NCBI RefSeq assembly: GCF_003334785.1
Contig: NZ_QOWV01000027.1
DNA: 30,887 bases
Strand: one strand, 5' to 3'
Source of the DNA: Escherichia coli
GTDB lineage: Bacteria > Pseudomonadota > Gammaproteobacteria > Enterobacterales > Enterobacteriaceae
Positions 57-22,570 of the stretch are shown piece by piece. A model generated the notes under the pieces. That model saw only the letters and a program-made list of their open reading frames with translations, ran no database searches and had not been told where the DNA came from. Each line of letters begins with the position of its first letter. Position 1 is the stretch's first letter. Position numbers and translations under genes: made by a program.

Positions 57-115
57 TGGAGGCGCATTATAGGGAGTTCTCCGCAGGCCGCAATAGAAAA
101 ATTGCAGAAAAATGA
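57..115 (-). promoter_or_regulatory. rRNA-operon P1-type promoter with UP element, firing leftward out of the window (rrnE P1 by synteny with purH)
   Basis: Minus strand: -35 TTGCGG (93..88), 16-nt spacer, -10 TATAAT (71..66), GC-rich discriminator GCGCCTCC, predicted start near 57. A/T-rich block 94..115 (minus-strand TCATTTTTCTGCAATTTTTCTA) sits where an UP element would. The 16-nt spacer, GCGC discriminator and UP element are the hallmark of E. coli rrn P1 promoters. Confidence 0.75.
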
Positions 116-169
116 CTGACTGCTGCATTCCCCAGCAAAAGCCCGCTTTATACCTTTTTACGCACAGAG

Positions 170-178
170 TTATCCACA
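170..178 (+). promoter_or_regulatory. Exact match to the DnaA-box consensus 9-mer TTATCCACA (function at this site unknown)
   Basis: Read directly: gagTTATCCACAatc. It lies in the intergenic control region between the rrn P1 promoter and the purH promoter. Confidence 0.35.
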
Positions 179-264
179 ATCATCAATGTAATTTCTGTAT
201 TTTGCCCACGGTAACCACAGTCAAAATTGTGATCACCATTGAAAGAGAAAAATTCGCGAGCGTT

Positions 265-286
265 GCGCAAACGTTTTCGTTACAAT
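265..286 (+). promoter_or_regulatory. PurR operator (pur box) abutting a -10-like hexamer of the purHD promoter
   Basis: GCGCAAACGTTTTCGT (265..280) closely matches the 16-bp pur-box consensus ACGCAAACGTTTTCNT. TACAAT (281..286) follows immediately. No good -35 was found, so the exact promoter geometry is uncertain. Confidence 0.7.
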
Positions 287-317
287 GCGGGCGAAAAATA
301 AGGATGCCCCGTTAGGG

Positions 318-355
318 GCGTTAGCTGAGTTTTTCGCGAAAAATTCAGCTAACGC
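318..355 (+). repeat. 38-bp near-perfect inverted repeat (hairpin or dyad) in the purH 5' leader
   Basis: GCGTTAGCTGAGTTTTT-CGCG-AAAAATTCAGCTAACGC. 18 of 19 arm pairs are complementary. The exception (G329/T344) is a G-U wobble only in the purH-sense RNA. A smaller hairpin GCCCC-GTTA-GGGGC (306..319) precedes it and shares 318..319. Confidence 0.9.
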
Positions 356-1988: not shown

Positions 1989-3278
1989 ATGAAAGTATTA
2001 GTGATTGGTAACGGCGGGCGCGAGCACGCGCTGGCCTGGAAAGCGGTCCAGTCGCCGCTGGTTGAGACTGTTTTTGTTGCTCCGGGTAATGCAGGCACTG
2101 CACTGGAACCCGCGCTGCAAAACGTTGCTATTGGCGTGACCGATATCCCGGCGCTGTTGGATTTCGCACAAAACGAAAAGATTGATCTGACCATCGTCGG
2201 CCCGGAAGCGCCGCTGGTGAAAGGCGTGGTCGATACCTTCCGCGCCGCCGGGCTGAAAATCTTCGGCCCAACCGCAGGTGCGGCCCAACTGGAAGGCTCA
2301 AAAGCGTTTACCAAAGATTTCCTGGCCCGCCATAAGATCCCTACGGCGGAATACCAGAACTTCACCGAGGTAGAACCTGCGCTGGCGTATCTGCGTGAGA
2401 AAGGCGCGCCAATCGTCATTAAAGCGGACGGTCTGGCTGCCGGGAAAGGCGTTATCGTGGCGATGACGCTGGAAGAAGCGGAAGCGGCTGTTCACGATAT
2501 GCTGGCGGGCAACGCTTTTGGCGACGCGGGTCATCGCATCGTTATCGAAGAGTTCCTCGATGGCGAAGAAGCGAGCTTTATCGTGATGGTGGACGGCGAG
2601 CATGTGCTGCCGATGGCTACCAGCCAGGATCACAAACGCGTAGGCGATAAAGATACCGGACCAAACACCGGCGGGATGGGCGCTTACTCCCCCGCGCCGG
2701 TAGTAACCGATGACGTTCATCAGCGCACCATGGAACGTATTATCTGGCCAACCGTGAAAGGCATGGCGGCGGAAGGCAACACCTACACCGGTTTTCTCTA
2801 CGCGGGCCTGATGATCGACAAACAGGGCAATCCGAAGGTTATTGAATTTAACTGCCGCTTTGGCGATCCGGAAACCCAGCCGATTATGCTGCGCATGAAG
2901 TCCGATCTGGTTGAGCTCTGCCTGGCGGCCTGTGAAAGCAAACTGGACGAGAAAACGTCCGAGTGGGATGAACGCGCTTCTCTCGGCGTGGTGATGGCTG
3001 CGGGTGGATATCCGGGTGATTACCGCACCGGTGACGTGATCCACGGCCTGCCGCTGGAAGAAGTGGCAGGCGGCAAAGTGTTCCACGCGGGCACAAAACT
3101 GGCGGATGACGAGCAGGTAGTGACCAACGGCGGGCGCGTACTGTGCGTCACCGCGCTGGGTCATACCGTGGCAGAAGCGCAGAAACGCGCCTATGCCTTA
3201 ATGACCGATATCCACTGGGACGACTGCTTCTGCCGGAAAGATATCGGCTGGCGCGCTATCGAACGCGAGCAGAACTAA
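1989..3278 (+). CDS. purD: Phosphoribosylamine-glycine ligase (GAR synthetase)
   Basis: 429-aa ORF starting 11 nt after the purH stop, with a GGAG SD. ATP-grasp GARS sequence (MKVLVIGNGGREHALAWK...). Confidence 0.98.
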   Translation: MKVLVIGNGGREHALAWKAVQSPLVETVFVAPGNAGTALEPALQNVAIGVTDIPALLDFAQNEKIDLTIVGPEAPLVKGVVDTFRAAGLKIFGPTAGAAQLEGSKAFTKDFLARHKIPTAEYQNFTEVEPALAYLREKGAPIVIKADGLAAGKGVIVAMTLEEAEAAVHDMLAGNAFGDAGHRIVIEEFLDGEEASFIVMVDGEHVLPMATSQDHKRVGDKDTGPNTGGMGAYSPAPVVTDDVHQRTMERIIWPTVKGMAAEGNTYTGFLYAGLMIDKQGNPKVIEFNCRFGDPETQPIMLRMKSDLVELCLAACESKLDEKTSEWDERASLGVVMAAGGYPGDYRTGDVIHGLPLEEVAGGKVFHAGTKLADDEQVVTNGGRVLCVTALGHTVAEAQKRAYALMTDIHWDDCFCRKDIGWRAIEREQN

Positions 3279-4600
3279 CGCGACAGTTTTGCCAATAGCG
3301 TTTTGCGCGTGATCCCTAACTGACGGGCGGCTTCGGTTTTGTTGCCGCCCGTTTTCTCCAGCGCCGCCAGAATCACCTCTTTTTCCACTTCCACCAACGG
3401 CTGAATATCCTGACTTTGTCCCAGCGGGATCGGCGTACTGGCAATCGCCAGCGGCAGCTCGCGTTCGGAAATATATTCCCCGGTCAGCAGCACCACTGCC
3501 CGTTCCACCGCGTTTTCCAGCTCACGAATATTTCCCGGCCAGTCGTAATGAATCAACAGATCCATCGCCTGGGGCGTAAAACCTTTTACCGCCTTGCGAT
3601 TACGCTCGGCAAAGCGCTGCAGAAAATGGCCAGCCAGCAGAGGGATATCTTCCCGCCGTTGCCGCAGCGATGGTACTTCAATCGCCACCACATTCAGGCG
3701 ATAGTAGAGATCCTGGCGAAAACGCCCGGCATTCACCTCTGCGGCAAGATCGCGATGGGTCGCCGCAATCAGCCGGACATCAACCGAGATAATCTGGTTG
3801 CTACCGACACGCTGAACTTCGCGCTCCTGAATCGCACGCAGCAGACGCACCTGCATCATCGGCGAGATATCGCCAATTTCATCGAGAAACAGCGTGCCGC
3901 CGTCCGCCTCAACAAAGCGCCCTTCCCGGCGTTTATCGGCTCCAGTAAACGCCCCTTTTTCGTGACCGAACAATTCAGATTCCAGCAAGGATTCGTTGAG
4001 TGCCGCACAGTTGAGCGTTACCAGCGGTTTTTCGCTACGTGCGCTACTGGCGTGAATCGCCCTGGCGACCAGCTCTTTACCGGTGCCGGAATCGCCGTGG
4101 ATCAGTACCGTGGCTTCCGATGGCGCGACGAGGGCGATTTCACTGAGCAGGTGTTGCATCGCCGGGCTTTTACCGACCATACCGAACTGGCTGGCAGTCA
4201 CCGCAGGTGTTTCAGCATCAATACTGTGCGTATGCGCGAGCGCTTTTTCCAGCGTCGCCTGTAGGTTATCGAAATCCAGCGGCTTGATGAGATAATCCAG
4301 CGCCCCAGTTTTCAGTGCCTCTACCGCCGTCTCGACGCTGGAGTACGCAGTCATAATCAGCACCGGAATTGCCGGGTTTAACGCTTTGATCTCTTTCAGC
4401 GTGGCGATGCCGTCCATCTCCGCCATTCGCACATCGCAAAGCACAAGATCAAAAACCTGTTCCCGCACCTGCTCCAACGCCTGTCGCCCGCTGTTCGCCA
4501 GCGCGACGTTATAGCCCCAGCCGCGCAGTAAAGCCTGCAAAATAGTGCAGTGGCTAATGTCATCATCCACCACCAGAATATCGATATTATCGTGCGTCAT
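3275..4600 (-). CDS. zraR: Sigma54-dependent response regulator of the zinc/envelope-stress two-component system
   Basis: 441-aa ORF. Receiver domain ([14 protein letters not shown]), AAA+ sigma54-interaction core (Walker A GDSGTGKE; GAFTGA loop in [15 protein letters not shown]) and a C-terminal Fis-type HTH. The start ATG overlaps the zraS stop (ATGA). Confidence 0.97.
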
Positions 4601-15284: not shown

Positions 15285-16055
15285 ATGTTACGTATTGCGG
15301 ACAAAACGTTTGATTCACATCTGTTTACCGGCACAGGGAAATTCGCTTCTTCACAACTGATGGTGGAGGCGATCCGCGCTTCCGGCAGCCAGCTGGTGAC
15401 ACTGGCGATGAAACGTGTCGACTTGCGCCAGCACAACGACGCTATCCTCGAACCGCTTATCGCGGCGGGTGTGACCCTGCTGCCAAATACATCCGGGGCG
15501 AAAACAGCGGAAGAAGCCATTTTCGCCGCCCATCTGGCTCGTGAAGCGTTAGGCACAAACTGGTTAAAATTAGAGATTCACCCTGACGCCCGCTGGCTGT
15601 TGCCCGATCCCATCGAAACCCTGAAAGCCGCCGAAACGCTGGTACAACAGGGATTTGTCGTGCTGCCTTACTGCGGGGCCGATCCGGTATTGTGTAAACG
15701 TCTGGAAGAAGTCGGCTGTGCAGCGGTGATGCCGCTCGGCGCGCCGATTGGCTCGAATCAGGGACTGGAAACCCGCGCCATGCTGGAGATTATTATCCAG
15801 CAGGCCACAGTGCCGGTGGTTGTCGATGCTGGCATCGGCGTTCCCAGCCATGCCGCGCAGGCGCTGGAAATGGGGGCCGACGCGGTGTTAGTGAATACGG
15901 CGATTGCCGTCGCGGACGATCCCGTCAACATGGCGAAGGCATTTCGTCTGGCGGTAGAAGCAGGCCTACTGGCACGTCAGTCCGGACCGAGCAGCCGCAG
16001 TTATTTTGCTCATGCCACCAGCCCGCTGACCGGATTTCTGGAGGCATCGGCATGA
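15285..16055 (+). CDS. thiG: Thiazole synthase
   Basis: 256 aa from ATG 15285, one nt after the thiS stop. [20 protein letters not shown]... is recognised as ThiG. The ORF-track 342-aa version is an upstream in-frame extension. Confidence 0.95.
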
Positions 16056-17185
16056 AAACCTTCAGCGATCGCTGGCGACAACTGGACTGGGACGACATCC
16101 GCCTGCGTATCAACGGCAAAACGGCTGCTGACGTAGAGCGGGCGCTAAATGCCTCGCAACTCACCCGCGACGACATGATGGCGCTGTTATCGCCTGCCGC
16201 CAGTGGCTATCTGGAACAACTGGCCCAACGGGCGCAGCGTCTGACCCGTCAGCGATTTGGCAACACAGTTAGTTTCTACGTCCCGCTTTATCTTTCCAAT
16301 CTTTGCGCTAACGACTGCACGTACTGTGGATTTTCCATGAGTAATCGCATCAAGCGCAAAACGCTGGATGAAGCGGATATTGCCAGGGAAAGTGCCGCTA
16401 TACGGGAGATGGGCTTTGAACATCTGCTGTTAGTCACTGGTGAACATCAGGCGAAAGTGGGGATGGATTACTTTCGTCGTCATCTCCCTGCCCTTCGTGA
16501 ACAGTTCTCTTCACTACAGATGGAAGTGCAACCGCTGGCGGAGACGGAATACGCCGAGTTAAAGCAACTTGGTCTGGATGGCGTGATGGTTTATCAGGAG
16601 ACATATCACGAGGCGACTTATGCCCGCCATCATCTGAAAGGCAAAAAACAGGACTTCTTCTGGCGGCTGGAAACGCCGGATCGGCTGGGGCGTGCGGGGA
16701 TTGATAAGATAGGCCTCGGCGCGCTAATTGGCCTTTCCGACAACTGGCGCGTTGACAGCTATATGGTTGCCGAACATTTGCTATGGCTGCAACAGCATTA
16801 CTGGCAAAGCCGTTACTCTGTCTCCTTTCCGCGCCTGCGCCCGTGTACTGGCGGCATTGAGCCTGCGTCGATTATGGATGAACGCCAGTTAGTGCAAACC
16901 ATCTGCGCCTTCCGACTGCTTGCACCGGAGATTGAACTGTCACTCTCCACGCGGGAATCACCGTGGTTTCGCGATCGCGTTATTCCGCTGGCGATCAATA
17001 ACGTCAGCGCCTTCTCGAAAACGCAGCCAGGTGGCTATGCCGATAATCACCCCGAGTTGGAACAGTTCTCACCGCACGACGATCGCAGACCGGAAGCGGT
17101 TGCTGCCGCGTTAACCGCTCAGGGTTTGCAGCCGGTATGGAAAGACTGGGACAGCTATCTGGGACGCGCCTCGCAAAGACTATGA
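16052..17185 (+). CDS. thiH: 2-iminoacetate synthase (tyrosine lyase), radical SAM
   Basis: 377-aa ORF with the radical-SAM motif [12 protein letters not shown] overlap with the thiG stop. Confidence 0.97.
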
Positions 17186-17297
17186 GACGGAATGTAAGAA
17201 CGTAAATTTATTCCGAGCCGCTACGGAAGATGAAAAACGCAAGGTTGTTGAAAGCGTTGTGTTTTTTTATGGTAGTGCCGTCAGCAGGAATGTTGTC

Positions 17298-17338
17298 CAG
17301 GGCGAAAAGCTTCTTCCTCGTTTCGCCCTGCCTTTCTT
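17298..17338 (+). terminator. Candidate terminator hairpin downstream of thiH
   Basis: 10-bp stem CAGGGCGAAA (17298..17307) / TTTCGCCCTG (17321..17330), followed by the T-rich CCTTTCTT. The 13-nt loop and imperfect U-tract make this tentative. A weaker AACGC/GCGTT hairpin followed by T7 lies at 17236..17268. Confidence 0.4.
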
Positions 17339-17429
17339 AAAAATTCCGTAATGCAAAGTCTGAAGCCATCGCCTGTTGAGCAATGAAAGAGATCTGATTG
17401 TAAGAGAGTAAATACTCAACTATGATAGA

Positions 17430-17601
17430 GACGAAAATAAGAACACATGTTCTCATCTTCCAGGATGCAGCAGACTGAAGAAATTCAGACATCCCGCAAC
17501 CTGCGATTATCGCAAGGTCAAGGCAAAGTCCGGTAATGGCGTTCTGAATACCAGAGATAATTCTCTGGCGAAACCCACCTTAAGGTGGGTTTTGTTATTT
17601 T
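17430..17601 (+). ncRNA. sroH: sroH small RNA region (ends approximate)
   Basis: Promoter-like TTGTAA (17398..17403), 17-nt spacer, TATGAT (17421..17426). Internal hairpins include CCAGAGA-TAAT-TCTCTGG (17551..17568). Terminal intrinsic terminator at 17574..17601. An sRNA named sroH has been reported in the thiH-yjaZ spacer of K-12, on the thiH strand. Confidence 0.5.
17571..17601 (+). terminator. Intrinsic terminator (sroH / thi-operon distal), overlapping the yjaZ stop codon
   Basis: AAA-CCCACC-TTAA-GGTGGG followed by TTTTGTTATTTT. Confidence 0.7.
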
Positions 17602-18134
17602 GAGGGCTGAGGAAGCTGCTTATTTCTCAATAAGTTGTAGGCAATGGTGAAAAATTTCACTGATTTACCTTTCTGTTTTTCAGAAATGGGATAAGCGCTA
17701 GTTACATGCAAACGGAGTTTTTTCTTTTCCCTGAAAGCCCTGAACGCAACAAAGTAAAATGCCTTATCTCCTCCGTCTAAGTCCACCTCAATCACGGCAT
17801 AGCTACCATACCCGGCATGAATAACGTTGCTTTCTGGCAGCGCCAAAATAGTTCTTTTTAAGTGTGTGCGCGCTAAGTTATAACGGTGCTGGCAGAAGGG
17901 ACGGGATTCTTTAGGCGCGTGGTACATTAACGATTGTTTTTCTTCGTTCGTCTGATGTTCATAATCTTTTGTGAAGCAGTGAAGAGAGTAGGTAACCCAA
18001 AAGCGATACTCTAAAGGCTCTTTGCCCTCATGATGCTGAACGTAGACAGCCTGATGAGCATCAAGAAATGATAAATCACGAATATCACCATCCGGATGTC
18101 CAAAAGGTCGCCACTTTTCCACTTCCTGTTTCAT
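17595..18134 (-). CDS. yjaZ: Poorly characterised protein YjaZ (historically heat-shock protein HtrC)
   Basis: 179-aa ORF recognised as E. coli YjaZ/HtrC. I see no catalytic motif by eye. The gene and its flanks are visibly AT-rich. Confidence 0.9.
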   Translation of the reverse strand: MKQEVEKWRPFGHPDGDIRDLSFLDAHQAVYVQHHEGKEPLEYRFWVTYSLHCFTKDYEHQTNEEKQSLMYHAPKESRPFCQHRYNLARTHLKRTILALPESNVIHAGYGSYAVIEVDLDGGDKAFYFVAFRAFREKKKLRLHVTSAYPISEKQKGKSVKFFTIAYNLLRNKQLPQPSK

Positions 18135-18298
18135 TCTCGTTCCTTAAGAAAGTTACACAGGAATAGTATCGAATCCTTGCCGAGTTTGACTCAATTAGTT
18201 CAGTCAGTTTCAGGATATTAGTCATCTCTACATTGATTATGAGTATTCAGAAATTCCTTAAATATTCTGACAAATGCTCTTTCCCTAAACTCCCCCCA

Positions 18299-18325
18299 TA
18301 AAAAAACCCGCCGAAGCGGGTTTTT
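18299..18325 (-). terminator. rpoC (rplKAJL-rpoBC) intrinsic terminator
   Basis: Minus strand AAAAACCCGC-TTCG-GCGGGTTTTTTTAT, 22 nt after the rpoC stop. A and T tracts on both sides suggest bidirectional potential. Confidence 0.88.
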
Positions 18326-18346
18326 ACGTTATTTGCGGATTAACGA

Positions 18347-21300
18347 TTACTCGTTATCAGAACCGCCCAGACCTGCGTTCAGCAGTTCTGCCAGGCTGGC
18401 AGATGCGTCTTCTGCAGTCACCTGCGGTGCAGCCGGAGCTTCACCCGCAGCACGGCGACGCATACGATCCTGGTGGTACGCGTAACCGGTACCTGCCGGG
18501 ATCAGACGACCCACGATAACGTTCTCTTTCAGGCCGCGCAGTTCGTCGCGTTTGCCCGCAACGGCTGCTTCGGTCAGCACGCGAGTGGTCTCCTGGAACG
18601 ATGCCGCGGAGATGAAGGACTCGGTTGCCAGAGACGCTTTGGTGATACCCAGCAGATCGCGGGAGTAAGTTGCACCCACTTTGCCGTTCGCTTCCAGTTC
18701 GCGGTTTGCGATCTTGACGCGAGAGTATTCAACCTGTTCGCCTTCCAGGAAGTCGGAGCTACCCGCGTTAACGATGGTAGCTTTACGCAGCATCTGACGA
18801 ACGATAACTTCGATGTGTTTATCGTTAATCTTAACGCCCTGCAGACGGTATACGTCCTGTACTTCGTTAACGATGTAACGAGTAACAGCATGAACACCAC
18901 GCAGACGCAGAATGTCGTGCGGCGCTTCCGGACCGTCGGAAATTACGTCACCACGTTCTACACGTTCACCTTCGAACACGTTGAGCTGACGCCATTTCGG
19001 AATCATCTCTTCGTACGGATCGCTACCGTCTACCGGGGTGATAACCAGACGACGTTTACCTTTGGTTTCTTTACCGAAGGAAACGATACCGCTGATTTCA
19101 GCCAGGATTGCCGGCTCTTTCGGACGACGTGCTTCGAACAGGTCCGCAACGCGCGGCAGACCACCGGTGATGTCCTTGGTACCGCCGGATTCCTGCGGAA
19201 TACGCGCCAGGGTGTCACCAGAGCTGATCTGTACGCCATCTTCCAGCTGAACAATCGCTTTACCCGGCAGGAAGTACTGCGCTGGCATATCGGTACCTGG
19301 GATCAGAACGTCGTTACCCTGAGCATCAACGATTTTCAGTGCCGGACGCAGATCTTTACCACCTGCGGTACGTTCTGCGGAATCCAGAACCACCAGCGAA
19401 GACAGACCGGTCAGTTCGTCGGTCTGACGCGTAATGGTCTGGCCGTCGATCATGTCAGTAAAGCGTACAAAACCGCTTACTTCGGTGATAACCGGCATGG
19501 TGTGCGGGTCCCAGTTTGCAACGGTTTCGCCGCCAGCAACCTGTTCGCCATCGCCTTTCGCCAGTACCGCACCGTAAGGTACTTTGTAGCTTTCTTTAGT
19601 ACGACCGAATTCGTCGATCAGTTTCAGTTCAGTATTACGGGAAGTGATAACCAGTTTACCGCTGGAGTTCACAACCGACTTCACGTTGCTGAGCTTGATG
19701 CTACCTTTGTTTTTCACTTGGATGCTGGATTCAGCAGCCGCACGAGATGCCGCACCACCGATGTGGAACGTACGCATGGTCAGCTGTGTACCCGGTTCAC
19801 CGATGGACTGTGCCGCGATAACACCGATTGCTTCACCCTTGTTGATGATGTGGCCACGCGCCAGGTCACGACCGTAGCAGTGCGCACATACACCAAAGTC
19901 GGTGTCACAAGATACAACAGAACGTACTTTAACCGCGTCGACAGAGTTCTCTTCCAGCAGGTCACACCACTGTTCGTGCAGCAGCGTGTTGCGCGGAACG
20001 AGGATATCAGCAGTACCCGGCTTCAGAACGTCTTCAGCAGTTACACGACCCAGTACGCGATCGCGCAGCGGCTCTTTAACGTCACCACCCTCGATAACCG
20101 GAGTCATCATGATACCTTCATGGGTACCACAATCGTCTTCGGTAACCACCAGGTCCTGCGCCACGTCAACCAGACGACGAGTCAGGTAACCGGAGTTCGC
20201 AGTTTTCAGTGCGGTATCCGCCAGACCTTTACGAGCACCGTGGGTGGAGATGAAGTACTGGAGTACGTTCAGACCTTCACGGAAGTTCGCGGTGATTGGC
20301 GTTTCGATGATGGAGCCATCCGGCTTCGCCATCAGACCACGCATACCAGCAAGCTGACGAATCTGTGCCGCAGAACCACGCGCACCGGAGTCGGCCATCA
20401 TGTAGATGCTGTTGAAGGAAACCTGCTTCTCTTCCTGACCGTCACGGTTAATCACGGTTTCAGTTTGCAGGTTATCCATCATCGCTTTGGATACACGATC
20501 GTTCGCCGCAGCCCAGATATCGATAACTTTGTTGTAGCGTTCGCCCGCAGTTACCAGACCAGACTGGAACTGCTCCTGAATTTCAGCAACTTCTGCTTCT
20601 GCCTCGGAGATGATTTCGTGTTTCTTCTCCGGGATGACCATGTCATCGATACCAACAGATGCACCAGAACGCGCTGCATAGGCGAAGCCGGTGTACATGA
20701 TCTGGTCCGCAAAAATAACGGTCGGTTTCAGACCGAGAATGCGGTAGCAGGTGTTCAGCATTTTGGAGATTGCTTTTTTACCCAGCGCCTGGTTGACGAT
20801 GGAGTAAGGCAGACCTTTCGGTACAATCATCCACAGAATGGCACGGCCAACAGTCGTGTCTTTCAGGCTGGTTTTCGCTACTAATTCACCGTTAGCATCT
20901 TTTTCATACTCGGTGATACGCACTTTAACGCGCGCATGCAGAGAAGCCAGACCAGAGCGATACAGACGTTCTGCTTCTTTCGGGCCAGTCAGCACCATGC
21001 CTTCGCCTTTGGCGTTAACACAGTCACGGGTCATGTAGTACAGACCCAGTACAACGTCCTGAGACGGAACGATGATTGGTTCGCCGTTCGCCGGGGACAG
21101 GATGTTGTTGGTAGACATCATCAGCGCACGCGCTTCCAGCTGGGCTTCCAGCGTCAGCGGTACGTGAACAGCCATCTGGTCACCATCGAAGTCGGCGTTA
21201 TATGCCGCACAAACCAGCGGGTGCAGCTGGATAGCTTTACCTTCGATCAGTACCGGTTCAAATGCCTGGATACCCAGACGGTGCAGAGTCGGTGCACGGT

Positions 21301-22570
21301 TCAGCAGTACCGGGTGTTCGCGGATAACTTCGTCCAGGATATCCCAAACGACAGCTTCTTCGCGCTCAACCATTTTCTTCGCAGCTTTAATGGTGGTAGC
21401 AAGACCACGCAGTTCCAGCTTGCCGTAGATGAACGGTTTGAACAGCTCCAGTGCCATTTTCTTCGGCAGACCGCACTGATGCAGACGCAGGTATGGACCT
21501 ACGGTGATTACAGAACGACCGGAGTAGTCAACACGCTTACCGAGCAGGTTCTGACGGAAACGACCCTGTTTACCTTTGATCATGTCGGCCAAAGATTTCA
21601 GAGGACGCTTGTTAGAACCGGTGATCGCACGACCGCGACGACCGTTATCCAGCAGGGCGTCTACCGCTTCCTGCAGCATACGTTTTTCGTTACGTACGAT
21701 GATGTCCGGCGCAGCCAGATCCAGCAGACGTTTCAGACGGTTGTTACGGTTAATGACGCGACGATACAGATCGTTCAGGTCAGAAGTCGCGAAACGACCA
21801 CCATCCAGCGGAACCAGCGGACGCAGATCTGGCGGCAGTACCGGCAGAACGGTCAGGATCATCCACTCTGGTTTGTTACCAGACTGAACGAACGCTTCCA
21901 GCAGTTTGATACGCTTGGTCAGCTTTTTACGCTTGGTTTCGGAGTTGGTTTCGTTCAGCTCTTCACGCAGCTGTTCGCACTCTTGCTCCAGATCCATGCT
22001 CTTCAGCAGAGCCTGGATTGCTTCCGCCCCCATCTTCGCGTCGAATTCGTCACCGAACTCTTCCAGCGCGTCCAGATACTGCTCTTCAGTCAGGATCTGC
22101 TGACGTTCCAGGTTGGTCATACCGCCTTCGATAACCACATAGGATTCAAAGTACAGTACGCGTTCGATATCGCGCAGCGGCATATCGAGCAGCAGACCGA
22201 TACGGGACGGCAGCGATTTCAGGAACCAGATGTGCGCAGTCGGGGAAGCCAGTTCGATGTGGCCCATACGCTCACGGCGTACTTTAGTCTGGGTCACTTC
22301 AACGCCGCACTTCTCACAGATGACGCCACGGTGTTTCAGGCGCTTGTACTTACCGCACAGGCACTCGTAATCTTTTACCGGCCCAAAGATACGGGCGCAG
22401 AAAAGGCCGTCACGTTCTGGTTTGAACGTACGGTAGTTGATGGTTTCCGGCTTTTTAACTTCACCGAAAGACCATGAACGGATCATGTCTGGCGAAGCCA
22501 GAGCAATTTTGATCGCATCAAACTCTTCGGTTTTAGTCTGCGCTTTCAGAAACTTTAATAAATCTTTCAC
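18347..22570 (-). CDS. rpoC: RNA polymerase beta' subunit
   Basis: 1407-aa ORF with a GTG start. Catalytic NADFDGD motif present ([15 protein letters not shown]), along with N-terminal zinc-binding cysteines. Confidence 0.99.

Follow-up and report, generated by a model that had tools for sequence, protein, structure and literature searches.

The spacer between thiH and yjaZ in Escherichia coli raises a question of ownership: to which gene, if to any, does the small RNA (sRNA) sroH encoded there belong? We analyzed this spacer, 409 bp from the thiH stop (17185) to the yjaZ stop codon (17595-17597), within a window of 30,887 nucleotides, the whole stretch of E. coli DNA under study (contig NZ_QOWV01000027.1), whose numbering is used throughout. 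sroH reportedly came to light in the RNomics screen of Vogel et al. in 2003, and the initial annotation was right to place it in this interval and to call it functionally uncharacterised, a description that holds in the literature searched. Our answer, to which we assign a probability of about 55%, is that sroH is an independently transcribed, non-coding structured RNA of ~130 to 160 nt and the RNA half of a mobile two-gene module with YjaZ. The sRNA itself is already catalogued; our main result is its reassignment to a conserved mobile module with yjaZ, the relevant partner, which lies on the far side and was overlooked in the initial annotation. The features that define the module are as follows.

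17349-18294: sroH-yjaZ cassette, 946 bp, comprising the sroH promoter, sroH, yjaZ and the yjaZ upstream region
17398-17426, plus strand: sigma-70-type promoter of sroH, TTGTAA-17-TATGAT, with the -10 box ending 7 nt before 17433
17433-17601, plus strand: sroH sRNA (Rfam bounds 17433-17593, U-rich tail to 17601)
17569-17579 paired with 17584-17594, plus strand: P6, the sroH intrinsic terminator, with tail UUUUGUUAUUUU and an inverted-repeat stem at 17571-17592
17595-18134, minus strand: yjaZ, 179 aa, Pfam PF27200 'YjaZ', NCBIfam NF007263
18135-18294, minus strand: yjaZ upstream region (promoter or 5' untranslated region [UTR]), within the indel
17341-17351, plus strand: left copy of an imperfect 11-bp direct repeat, AAATTCCGTAA, at the cassette boundary, from a repeat search, spacing 910 bp
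18251-18261: right copy of the 11-bp direct repeat, AAATTCCTTAA, from the repeat search

Presence and absence within the species define the cassette. With the 416-bp stretch 17186-17601 as query, 5 of the 5,426 complete E. coli genomes searched gave no match, 3,730 matched over the whole stretch, and the rest did so over the first ~160 nt only. Separate searches of the same genomes found sroH in 3,740 and yjaZ in 3,738, and the complete cassette is missing in ~31%, where thiH and the proximal 163 bp stay. Pairwise alignment of the window with empty alleles (L002 and L003) places the boundaries at 17348/17349 and 18294/18295; in empty-site E. coli the 946-bp block is replaced by 25 unrelated bp, GAAGAATTTGCCCTCTGAATAACAC, and in a Nissle derivative and in EC43 the thiH stop lies ~241 bp from the rpoC stop, with sroH and yjaZ both missing. 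The core spacer, 17186-17348, is retained at 96 to 99% identity in E. coli without the two genes. The 409 bp had been described as a single structured spacer, a description that fails here, as only 17186-17348 is linked to thiH and the rest lies in the yjaZ cassette. By this comparison, the spacer is two evolutionary units, 17186-17348 going with thiH and 17349 onward with yjaZ, and gene content shows sroH and yjaZ being gained, lost and transferred as a pair. In the window, the module is by the same measure lodged between the thiH and rpoC terminators. The direct repeat (consensus AAATTCC(G/T)TAA) has a single counterpart, AAATTCCGTGAA, in the empty allele; as a short repeat in two copies, it could be of chance origin.

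The absence of sroH from B2 and D strains was noted earlier and ascribed to secondary loss (PMC3318445). The cassette occupies this very site in E. albertii and in a divergent Escherichia clade too, which fits secondary loss in those phylogroups. sroH hardly varies among E. coli: 3,734 of its 3,742 records reach 99% identity or more, compared with 2,943 of 3,738 for yjaZ. The divergent Escherichia clade shows 2 changes over the 161 nt of sroH and substitutions at ~7% in yjaZ. Two seemingly diverged YjaZ proteins in GTDB species representatives, L008 (CP182557.1, Shigella flexneri) and L009 (CP178306.1, E. coli), were discarded, as both assemblies are riddled with single-base indels and the apparent 57 to 67% protein identity is a sequencing artefact. 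The empty thiH-rpoC site of E. coli strain 504838 contains a copy of the insertion sequence IS1 (L004, 3137-3834).

Linkage outside E. coli provides the broader case for a module. A profile search for YjaZ returned 741 clusters at 50% identity, and an sroH-family RNA adjoins nearly every checked YjaZ (PF27200) homologue of at least ~47% identity; where such loci have enough flanking DNA, the RNA is found at 54 to 176 bits with the Rfam model or our own covariance model. About 25 distinct metagenome and IMG/VR loci carry the RNA directly beside a YjaZ homologue, and RNA homologues are also present in Thiothrix and Serratia. Among PLSDB plasmids the RNA is present on 107 and the close pair on about 100; 577 tblastn matches were rejected as a count of carriers, most being remote paralogues of 29 to 35% identity with no significant RNA match.

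The settings of these copies are diverse. On 2,462-bp ColE1-type plasmids no cargo gene other than the yjaZ homologue has a functional name; it is the sole annotated gene of pKSE-C11_4 and, in pB1022, is split into two open reading frames (ORFs) beside two small hypotheticals; htrC/yjaZ has been listed among ColE1 plasmid cargo (PMC5864857). P1-like phage-plasmids carry the pair as an oppositely oriented insert (moron) among tail genes, beside a HigBA pair, YjaZ homologues are also found on mobilisable plasmids, and on a Serratia plasmid the module adjoins a methyltransferase and an antirestriction gene. By analogy, mini-plasmid cargo, a moron beside HigBA and methyltransferase or antirestriction neighbors are contexts typical of selfish or defence cargo. 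A plasmid-like Vibrio contig (L010) carries yjaZ-sroH as well; this 3.2-kb contig of a metagenome-assembled genome looks like a small plasmid, and it also holds a PAGEV RNA (RF03037, 125 bits, 108-324, minus strand) and two helix-turn-helix proteins. In cyanobacterial chromosomes the pair sits between unrelated housekeeping genes, and the cyanobacterial and Escherichia chromosomal copies, which lie outside recognisable mobile elements, retain the pair.

The usual geometry is convergent, with the RNA 3' end abutting or overlapping the yjaZ stop in 25 loci, where the two range from a 4-nt overlap to ~33 nt apart. The distance is 114 nt in the frameshifted L014, where the protein match is truncated, and in L086 and L087 gene and RNA are 1.3 kb apart, with a 418-aa transposase gene (3016-4272), IS256 or Mutator-like in our reading, inside the yjaZ 3' end. 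In two remote lineages, represented by a Vibrio parahaemolyticus plasmid and a metagenome contig, RNA and gene share a strand with the RNA upstream, in the order RNA, terminator, gene (L121, 2278-2437, plus strand; L126, 77-237, plus strand), which indicates that the coupling is independent of convergent overlap.

This geometry is also what would recommend sroH as a cis-antisense or transcription-interference regulator of yjaZ with a type I-like 3' overlap. The 25 abutting or overlapping loci support such a role, and the hairpin on the yjaZ strand lacks a U-tract, so that read-through of yjaZ into sroH antisense would be possible. We nonetheless regard it as quite unlikely, as the overlap with the coding sequence is limited to the stop codon, the tandem arrangement in L121 and L126 excludes antisense, RNAs exist as orphans, antisense pairing needs no six-helix covarying fold with invariant loops, and there is no conserved duplex with the yjaZ 5' region. 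Pairing of sroH with the yjaZ 5' UTR or start was tried and rejected: RNAduplex z-scores were around 0 with no common site, in a crude test on long sequences.

That sroH is a transcript in its own right, and one with a partner rather than a fragment of the thi operon, is the next element of the argument. Rfam RF00372 matches 17433-17593 (plus strand) at 201.1 bits against a gathering score of 80, over model positions 1-161 of 161; our own covariance model gives 174 bits, and in MG1655 the corresponding position, on the strand of thiH, is annotated as sroH (b4691). The gene comprises a non-conserved 5' leader (17433-17461) and a conserved structured core (17462-17594), and the yjaZ stop codon falls inside the terminator tail UUUUGUUAUUUU. 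The promoter-like signal proposed from the window's sequence does end 7 nt before the Rfam 5' end; its consensus match by itself is not significant (3 found versus 1.7 expected). Upstream of most homologues there are -35/-10-like pairs, in two classes that end 6 to 8 nt or 27 to 39 nt before the conserved core. A terminator likewise accompanies the RNA in all its settings. The palindrome AGAACA-CA-TGTTCT (17440-17453) lies inside the 5' leader and has no comparative support, the leader not being conserved outside Escherichia chromosomal copies.

Whether sroH is an independent transcript or a processed 3' UTR had been left open by the initial annotation; the comparison settles this, since promoter-bearing copies of the RNA occur in dozens of unrelated contexts without thi genes. 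The window shows what a primary transcript would have, a promoter at the correct distance from 17433 and a covarying terminator of its own, P6, and the full-length species has been called the SroH primary transcript, polyadenylated (PMC5389530). A processed or read-through fragment of the thiCEFSGH 3' UTR would suit the position of sroH downstream of thiH on the same strand, and a small-protein gene would suit an ORF of 23 or 29 codons that starts at 17466 or 17447. Both are very improbable. Two terminator-like hairpins separate thiH from sroH, which has its own promoter, ~31% of E. coli are thiH positive and sroH negative, and the homologues have no thi neighbors. As for a small protein, the ATGCAGCAG ORF, the only one to recur, is not conserved: many homologues interrupt it or put it out of frame, five lineages have a stop after 5 codons, and its register against the conserved TAA differs between lineages. 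We rejected it. Ribosome profiling in enterohemorrhagic E. coli found low ribosome coverage of sroH (PMC5331693). On these comparative grounds, sroH is an independent primary transcript, unrelated to thiamine biosynthesis. sroH has further been described as a PNPase substrate (PMC13572404) and as showing no biofilm phenotype (PMC4606813).

The fold gives the RNA an identity that goes beyond its address. The whole sroH of E. coli folds better than its shuffles (z = -5.6), and tests on 28 distinct homologous RNAs, in which two models were compared, led us to adopt a structure of six supported helix elements (P1/P2, Px, P3, P4 and P5) with the terminator P6.

17463-17467 (GGAUG) paired with 17490-17494 (CAUCC), plus strand: P1, enclosing an invariant GCAGCAGAC loop and P2
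17475-17478 paired with 17485-17488, plus strand: P2 hairpin, 4 of 4 pairs compensatory
17495-17498 paired with 17537 and 17539-17541, plus strand: Px, from a covariation scan, closing the three-way junction 17495-17541
17500-17518, plus strand: P3, a hairpin of variable length inside the three-way junction
17522-17524 (GGC) paired with 17528-17530 (GUC), plus strand: P4, followed by invariant CCGGUAA
from 17542 to P5 (17551), plus strand: single-stranded linker UUCUGAAUA, nearly invariant in the 28 sequences
17551-17557 (CCAGAGA) paired with 17562-17568 (UCUCUGG), plus strand: P5 hairpin, 7 of 7 pairs compensatory

Under this fold, pairing holds in 96.8% of cells, and 25 of the 38 pairs have compensatory substitutions that alter both partners; none of 500 shuffles reaches the observed values, and slid controls are 29 to 47% paired. 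P1 reads GAAUG/CAUUC in L099 and L091 and CGGUG/CACCG in L126, the change in L099 being counted and that in L091 hidden from the count by an insert column. All 4 pairs of Px are compensatory and, since Px is absent from the aligning model, constitute independent evidence. P6 has 5 compensatory pairs of 11, and a G-U pair at 17570/17593 is retained in 28 of 28 sequences; such invariant G-U pairs fix the RNA strand as the one convergent to yjaZ. A long-range helix proposed by RNAalifold, AGGAUGC/GCGUUCU (alignment columns 31-37 with 170-177), had no compensatory pair and several broken ones and was therefore replaced by P1 and Px from the covariation scan. The small hairpins and the terminator picked out from the window alone thus gain compensatory changes in the 28 homologues; the CTGAA-GAAA-TTCAG hairpin is real, at 17475-17488 rather than one nucleotide earlier at 17474-17487, and the other stands at 17551-17568.

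Between the helices run near-invariant single-stranded blocks, GCAGCAGAC, CCGGUAA and UUCUGAAUA; length varies in P3 and in the P5 loop, and the 5' leader is not conserved. The pattern of substitutions shows the fold and these blocks to be under strong purifying selection from enterobacteria to cyanobacteria and, by the same covariation, sroH is a genuine structured non-coding RNA. Rfam RF00372 models the terminator hairpin alone as structure, in contrast to the six covarying helices here, and the family, unlike sroH as catalogued, extends well outside Escherichia and has a protein partner that looks obligate.

The reading of sroH as an ordinary trans-acting base-pairing sRNA for host mRNAs (kbl, envelope), with yjaZ linkage reduced to co-transfer of a neighbor, must be weighed against this conservation. 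In its support, sroH binds kbl mRNA in an electrophoretic mobility shift assay (EMSA; PMC6172242), has a Rho-independent terminator with a U-tail, and has been catalogued with the sRNAs under CRP control, with higher levels in stationary phase (bioRxiv 10.64898/2025.12.22.696124), and an envelope-stress phenotype of its deletion is cited in PMC5389530 and PMC13572404. We consider this account unlikely, although it is the foremost of the rivals. No set of target mRNAs is common to the hosts in which this RNA persists with its loops almost unchanged, namely cyanobacteria, Vibrio, Thiothrix, Serratia and the bearers of tiny plasmids. Seeds specific to one host are hard to square with such conservation between phyla, and the part of sroH that varies is the 5' leader and not a seed. 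Hitchhiking is also insufficient to explain a YjaZ linkage that holds at 47% protein identity and in tandem order. Set beside Hfq-dependent trans-acting sRNAs, sroH has only a terminator U-tail and one published EMSA (PMC6172242) to show.

Some RNAs travel without yjaZ, and these orphans suggest a further interpretation.

L110, 6537-6702, minus strand: orphan sroH-family RNA, no yjaZ nearby
L117, 2927-3089, minus strand: orphan sroH-family RNA, no yjaZ nearby
L109, 1728-1880, minus strand: orphan sroH-family RNA, no yjaZ nearby

The first two are in P2-like prophage fragments, beside an Ogr/Delta zinc-finger gene, portal, terminase and an Rpn (YhgA-like) gene, and the third is in a viral contig of 341 kb, flanked by a DUF1848 gene and a gene that has no annotation. 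Conceivably the RNA serves mobile elements on its own account, for instance by decoying defences, by helping replication or packaging or as the target of an integrase, with YjaZ as a frequent accessory; these yjaZ-less, full-length copies and the strong association of the RNA with plasmids and phages are in keeping with that. We give it slender odds, ranked below antisense regulation: yjaZ is missing at only 3 of ~40 distinct RNA loci, and the cyanobacterial and Escherichia chromosomal pairs persist outside recognisable mobile elements. Under the two-gene module that we favor, the prophage orphans could, by analogy, be antitoxin mimics. The phage-borne orphan copies recall what have reportedly been described as pseudo-ToxI escape loci.

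The protein side of the module is less well defined. A 32-sequence alignment of YjaZ has W8, D20, Y43, Y49, H52, R84, G108, R141, H143 and S146 among its invariant residues, and invariant His, Arg, Lys, Ser and Tyr would fit a nuclease. The AlphaFold2 model is of good confidence by its own scores (predicted local distance difference test, 88.7; predicted template modelling score, 0.85), and its best structural neighbors, all weak matches, are toxin domains of the RelE/ParE superfamily (BECR-fold) and of CdiA-CT. Most RelE/ParE-type toxins, RelE, HigB, YoeB, BrnT and YafQ among them, are RNases. YjaZ weakly resembles this type in the model, and we treat the resemblance as a lead, not a classification. 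RelE/ParE type II toxins have an adjacent protein antitoxin gene, unlike yjaZ, which has no ORF partner in the sroH-yjaZ cassette.

We propose that sroH would bind YjaZ to form a ribonucleoprotein and, within it, would restrain or regulate YjaZ, which would itself act as a RelE/ParE-like nuclease toxin. The module would then be a type III-like addiction or phage-defence system, with one structured RNA replacing the repeat array, and the stationary-phase induction and envelope-stress phenotype of sroH would read out the module and not a trans-acting regulon. Autoregulation by YjaZ through an RNA mimic upstream of its gene is conceivable from the sequence there: on the yjaZ strand, 18243-18252 reproduces the invariant motif TTCTGAATAC of sroH without a mismatch (a 10-mer, at chance level for its length), a 26-nt stretch at 18187-18212 is 73% identical to the P1/P2 region of sroH (within chance expectation), and the divergent Escherichia clade (L007) keeps a similar TTTCTGGATACC upstream of yjaZ. 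Genomic SELEX (systematic evolution of ligands by exponential enrichment) found a binding peak of a minor-sigma holoenzyme between rpoC and yjaZ (PMC5493296).

Several observations weigh against this proposal. The binding, toxicity and nuclease roles of YjaZ are all putative. The protein has no match in the Pfam copy searched, in PADLOC or in PHROGs, no tblastn match in a phage GenBank collection and none by profile search against PDB sequences, and the best Foldseek hit of its model, HigB2, has a non-significant E of 0.075, the RelE/ParE-type neighbors being weak. Full-length RNAs scoring 117 to 128 bits occur without a YjaZ homologue nearby in L109, L110 and L117, and remote YjaZ paralogues on Klebsiella and Pseudomonas plasmids (29 to 35% identity) have no significant RNA match. 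The in vitro EMSA target kbl (PMC6172242) fits ordinary trans base-pairing. The sroH deletion, as cited in PMC5389530 and PMC13572404, is viable, with an envelope-stress phenotype only. Such viability speaks against a strong toxin made constitutively, although low expression is common among chromosomal modules.

Remote members of the family may have taken other partners. Next to a remote YjaZ-family gene without detectable RNA, a 153-aa gene lies 3 nt upstream (L124, 605-1608; L125, 1177-2180), has a weak DnaD_N or winged helix-turn-helix match and may encode a protein that has replaced the RNA as partner. Toxin-antitoxin families typically exchange partners in this way. On the Klebsiella plasmid pKPC-LK30 (L120), the RNA model gives 9 bits (E of ~0.2) at 3542-3715 (minus strand), directly past the stop of a 29% paralogue; the region has a CAUCCCGC-like block and a terminator, and may be a highly diverged RNA partner.

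Comparison with known systems helps to locate the proposed module. As in the type III toxin-antitoxin systems (ToxIN, CptIN and TenpIN), the gene for a non-coding RNA is closely coupled with one for a protein of ~170 to 190 aa on plasmids, phages and chromosomes, and in L121 and L126 only, the order of RNA, terminator and protein gene on one strand is that of toxI-toxN. In the window, unlike in type III, sroH is downstream of and convergent to yjaZ; there are no tandem repeats of the kind that make up type III antitoxin arrays, either in 17150-18400 with Tandem Repeats Finder or by the repeat search; and YjaZ falls outside the ToxN/AbiQ, CptN and TenpN endoribonuclease families. Lacking both tandem repeats and a known type III toxin family, the pair is not a member of ToxIN, CptIN or TenpIN. 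Bacillus txpA/RatA and bsrG/SR4 are type I systems with convergent RNAs that overlap at the 3' end, and the convergence of RNA and protein gene on a shared terminator is similar. The toxins there are small hydrophobic peptides, unlike the 179-aa YjaZ with no annotated membrane or signal feature, and the overlap here is of the stop codon only, with linkage kept in tandem arrangements. On a tentative view, which we hold to be possible but doubtful, sroH-YjaZ would be the founding example of an unrecognised, widespread class of RNA-protein toxin-antitoxin or anti-phage systems, in which a single ~130-nt RNA neutralises a RelE/ParE-like nuclease and orphan phage copies serve in counter-defence. 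In the literature searched, where subscription journals were thinly covered, the sroH-yjaZ link, the structure of sroH and its spread on mobile elements are not reported.

The rest of the spacer, and the flanking genes, can be dealt with more briefly.

stop ends at 17185, plus strand: thiH, from the gene annotation of the window
17186-17348, plus strand: thiH-proximal core spacer (thiH 3' UTR or terminator region), outside the sroH-yjaZ cassette
~17232-17268, plus strand: A-tract/hairpin/U7 element (AACGC 17236-17240, GCGTT 17254-17258, T7 17262-17268)
17298-17330, plus strand: hairpin with a 10-bp stem (perfect inverted repeat 17298-17307 and 17321-17330), then CCTTTCTT
18347-22570, minus strand: rpoC, from the gene annotation of the window

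The elements first picked out from the sequence, namely AACGC/GCGTT with T7, the 10-bp-stem hairpin, the promoter, the palindrome and the CCAGAGA hairpin, are all present where described, as is the terminator over the yjaZ stop (stem 17571-17592, tail to 17601, stop 17595-17597). What changes is the assignment: from their position, both thiH-proximal hairpins (17232-17268 and 17298-17330) are part of the thiH 3' end rather than of sroH, because they lie within the part common to all E. coli strains. The 164 nt nearest thiH fold with z = -3.7, and in the minimum free energy fold the U-run of the U7 element is paired with the A-run upstream. A sequence scan under its own criteria called neither thiH-proximal hairpin nor the sroH terminator. 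The rpoC intrinsic terminator is at 18302-18325, and its T-run/A-run pairs on paper with 17261-17272.

Other candidates in this region were rejected. Rfam matches around 18300 (rsmX, Trp/Leu leader, istR) and at the sroH 3' end (rnk_pseudo, Hammerhead_II) are all below gathering scores; the rsmX and rnk_pseudo alignments rest on terminator hairpins, that of rsmX on the rpoC terminator, and the Trp/Leu leader, istR and Hammerhead_II matches presumably do likewise. A 36-aa ORF at 17230-17340 has no family match. Nor has a 51-aa ORF at 17337-17492 (minus strand) with a hydrophobic stretch, which spans the boundary at 17349 over the non-conserved leader and promoter and, antisense to the sroH promoter and 5' part, is probably not a gene. 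The DNA of the window is K-12-like, in reverse orientation to the E. coli reference genome, and over 15420-18920 (3.5 kb) differs from MG1655 at 2 bases only, 15990 and 17904, the latter synonymous at Ser77 of yjaZ (TCC against TCT). Among the genome matches listed, the best for yjaZ, K-12 DH1 included, are 99.8% identical, one base apart, presumably at position 17904.

For E. coli, a first consequence is one of caution, in that this intergenic region is not to be read as thi-operon regulatory sequence. sroH has remained an orphan within the most thoroughly studied of bacterial genomes, and hunts for trans targets have given little; the present analysis turns two entries of unknown function, sroH and yjaZ, into one testable hypothesis, covering RNA-protein binding, toxicity and neutralisation, and plasmid stabilisation or phage defence. 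A further product is a secondary structure backed by covariation, in place of the lone terminator in Rfam, and the cassette-free E. coli, ~31% of genomes, are natural clean hosts. If a non-repetitive RNA antitoxin does neutralise a RelE/ParE-like protein, the range of toxin-antitoxin and defence architectures would be wider.

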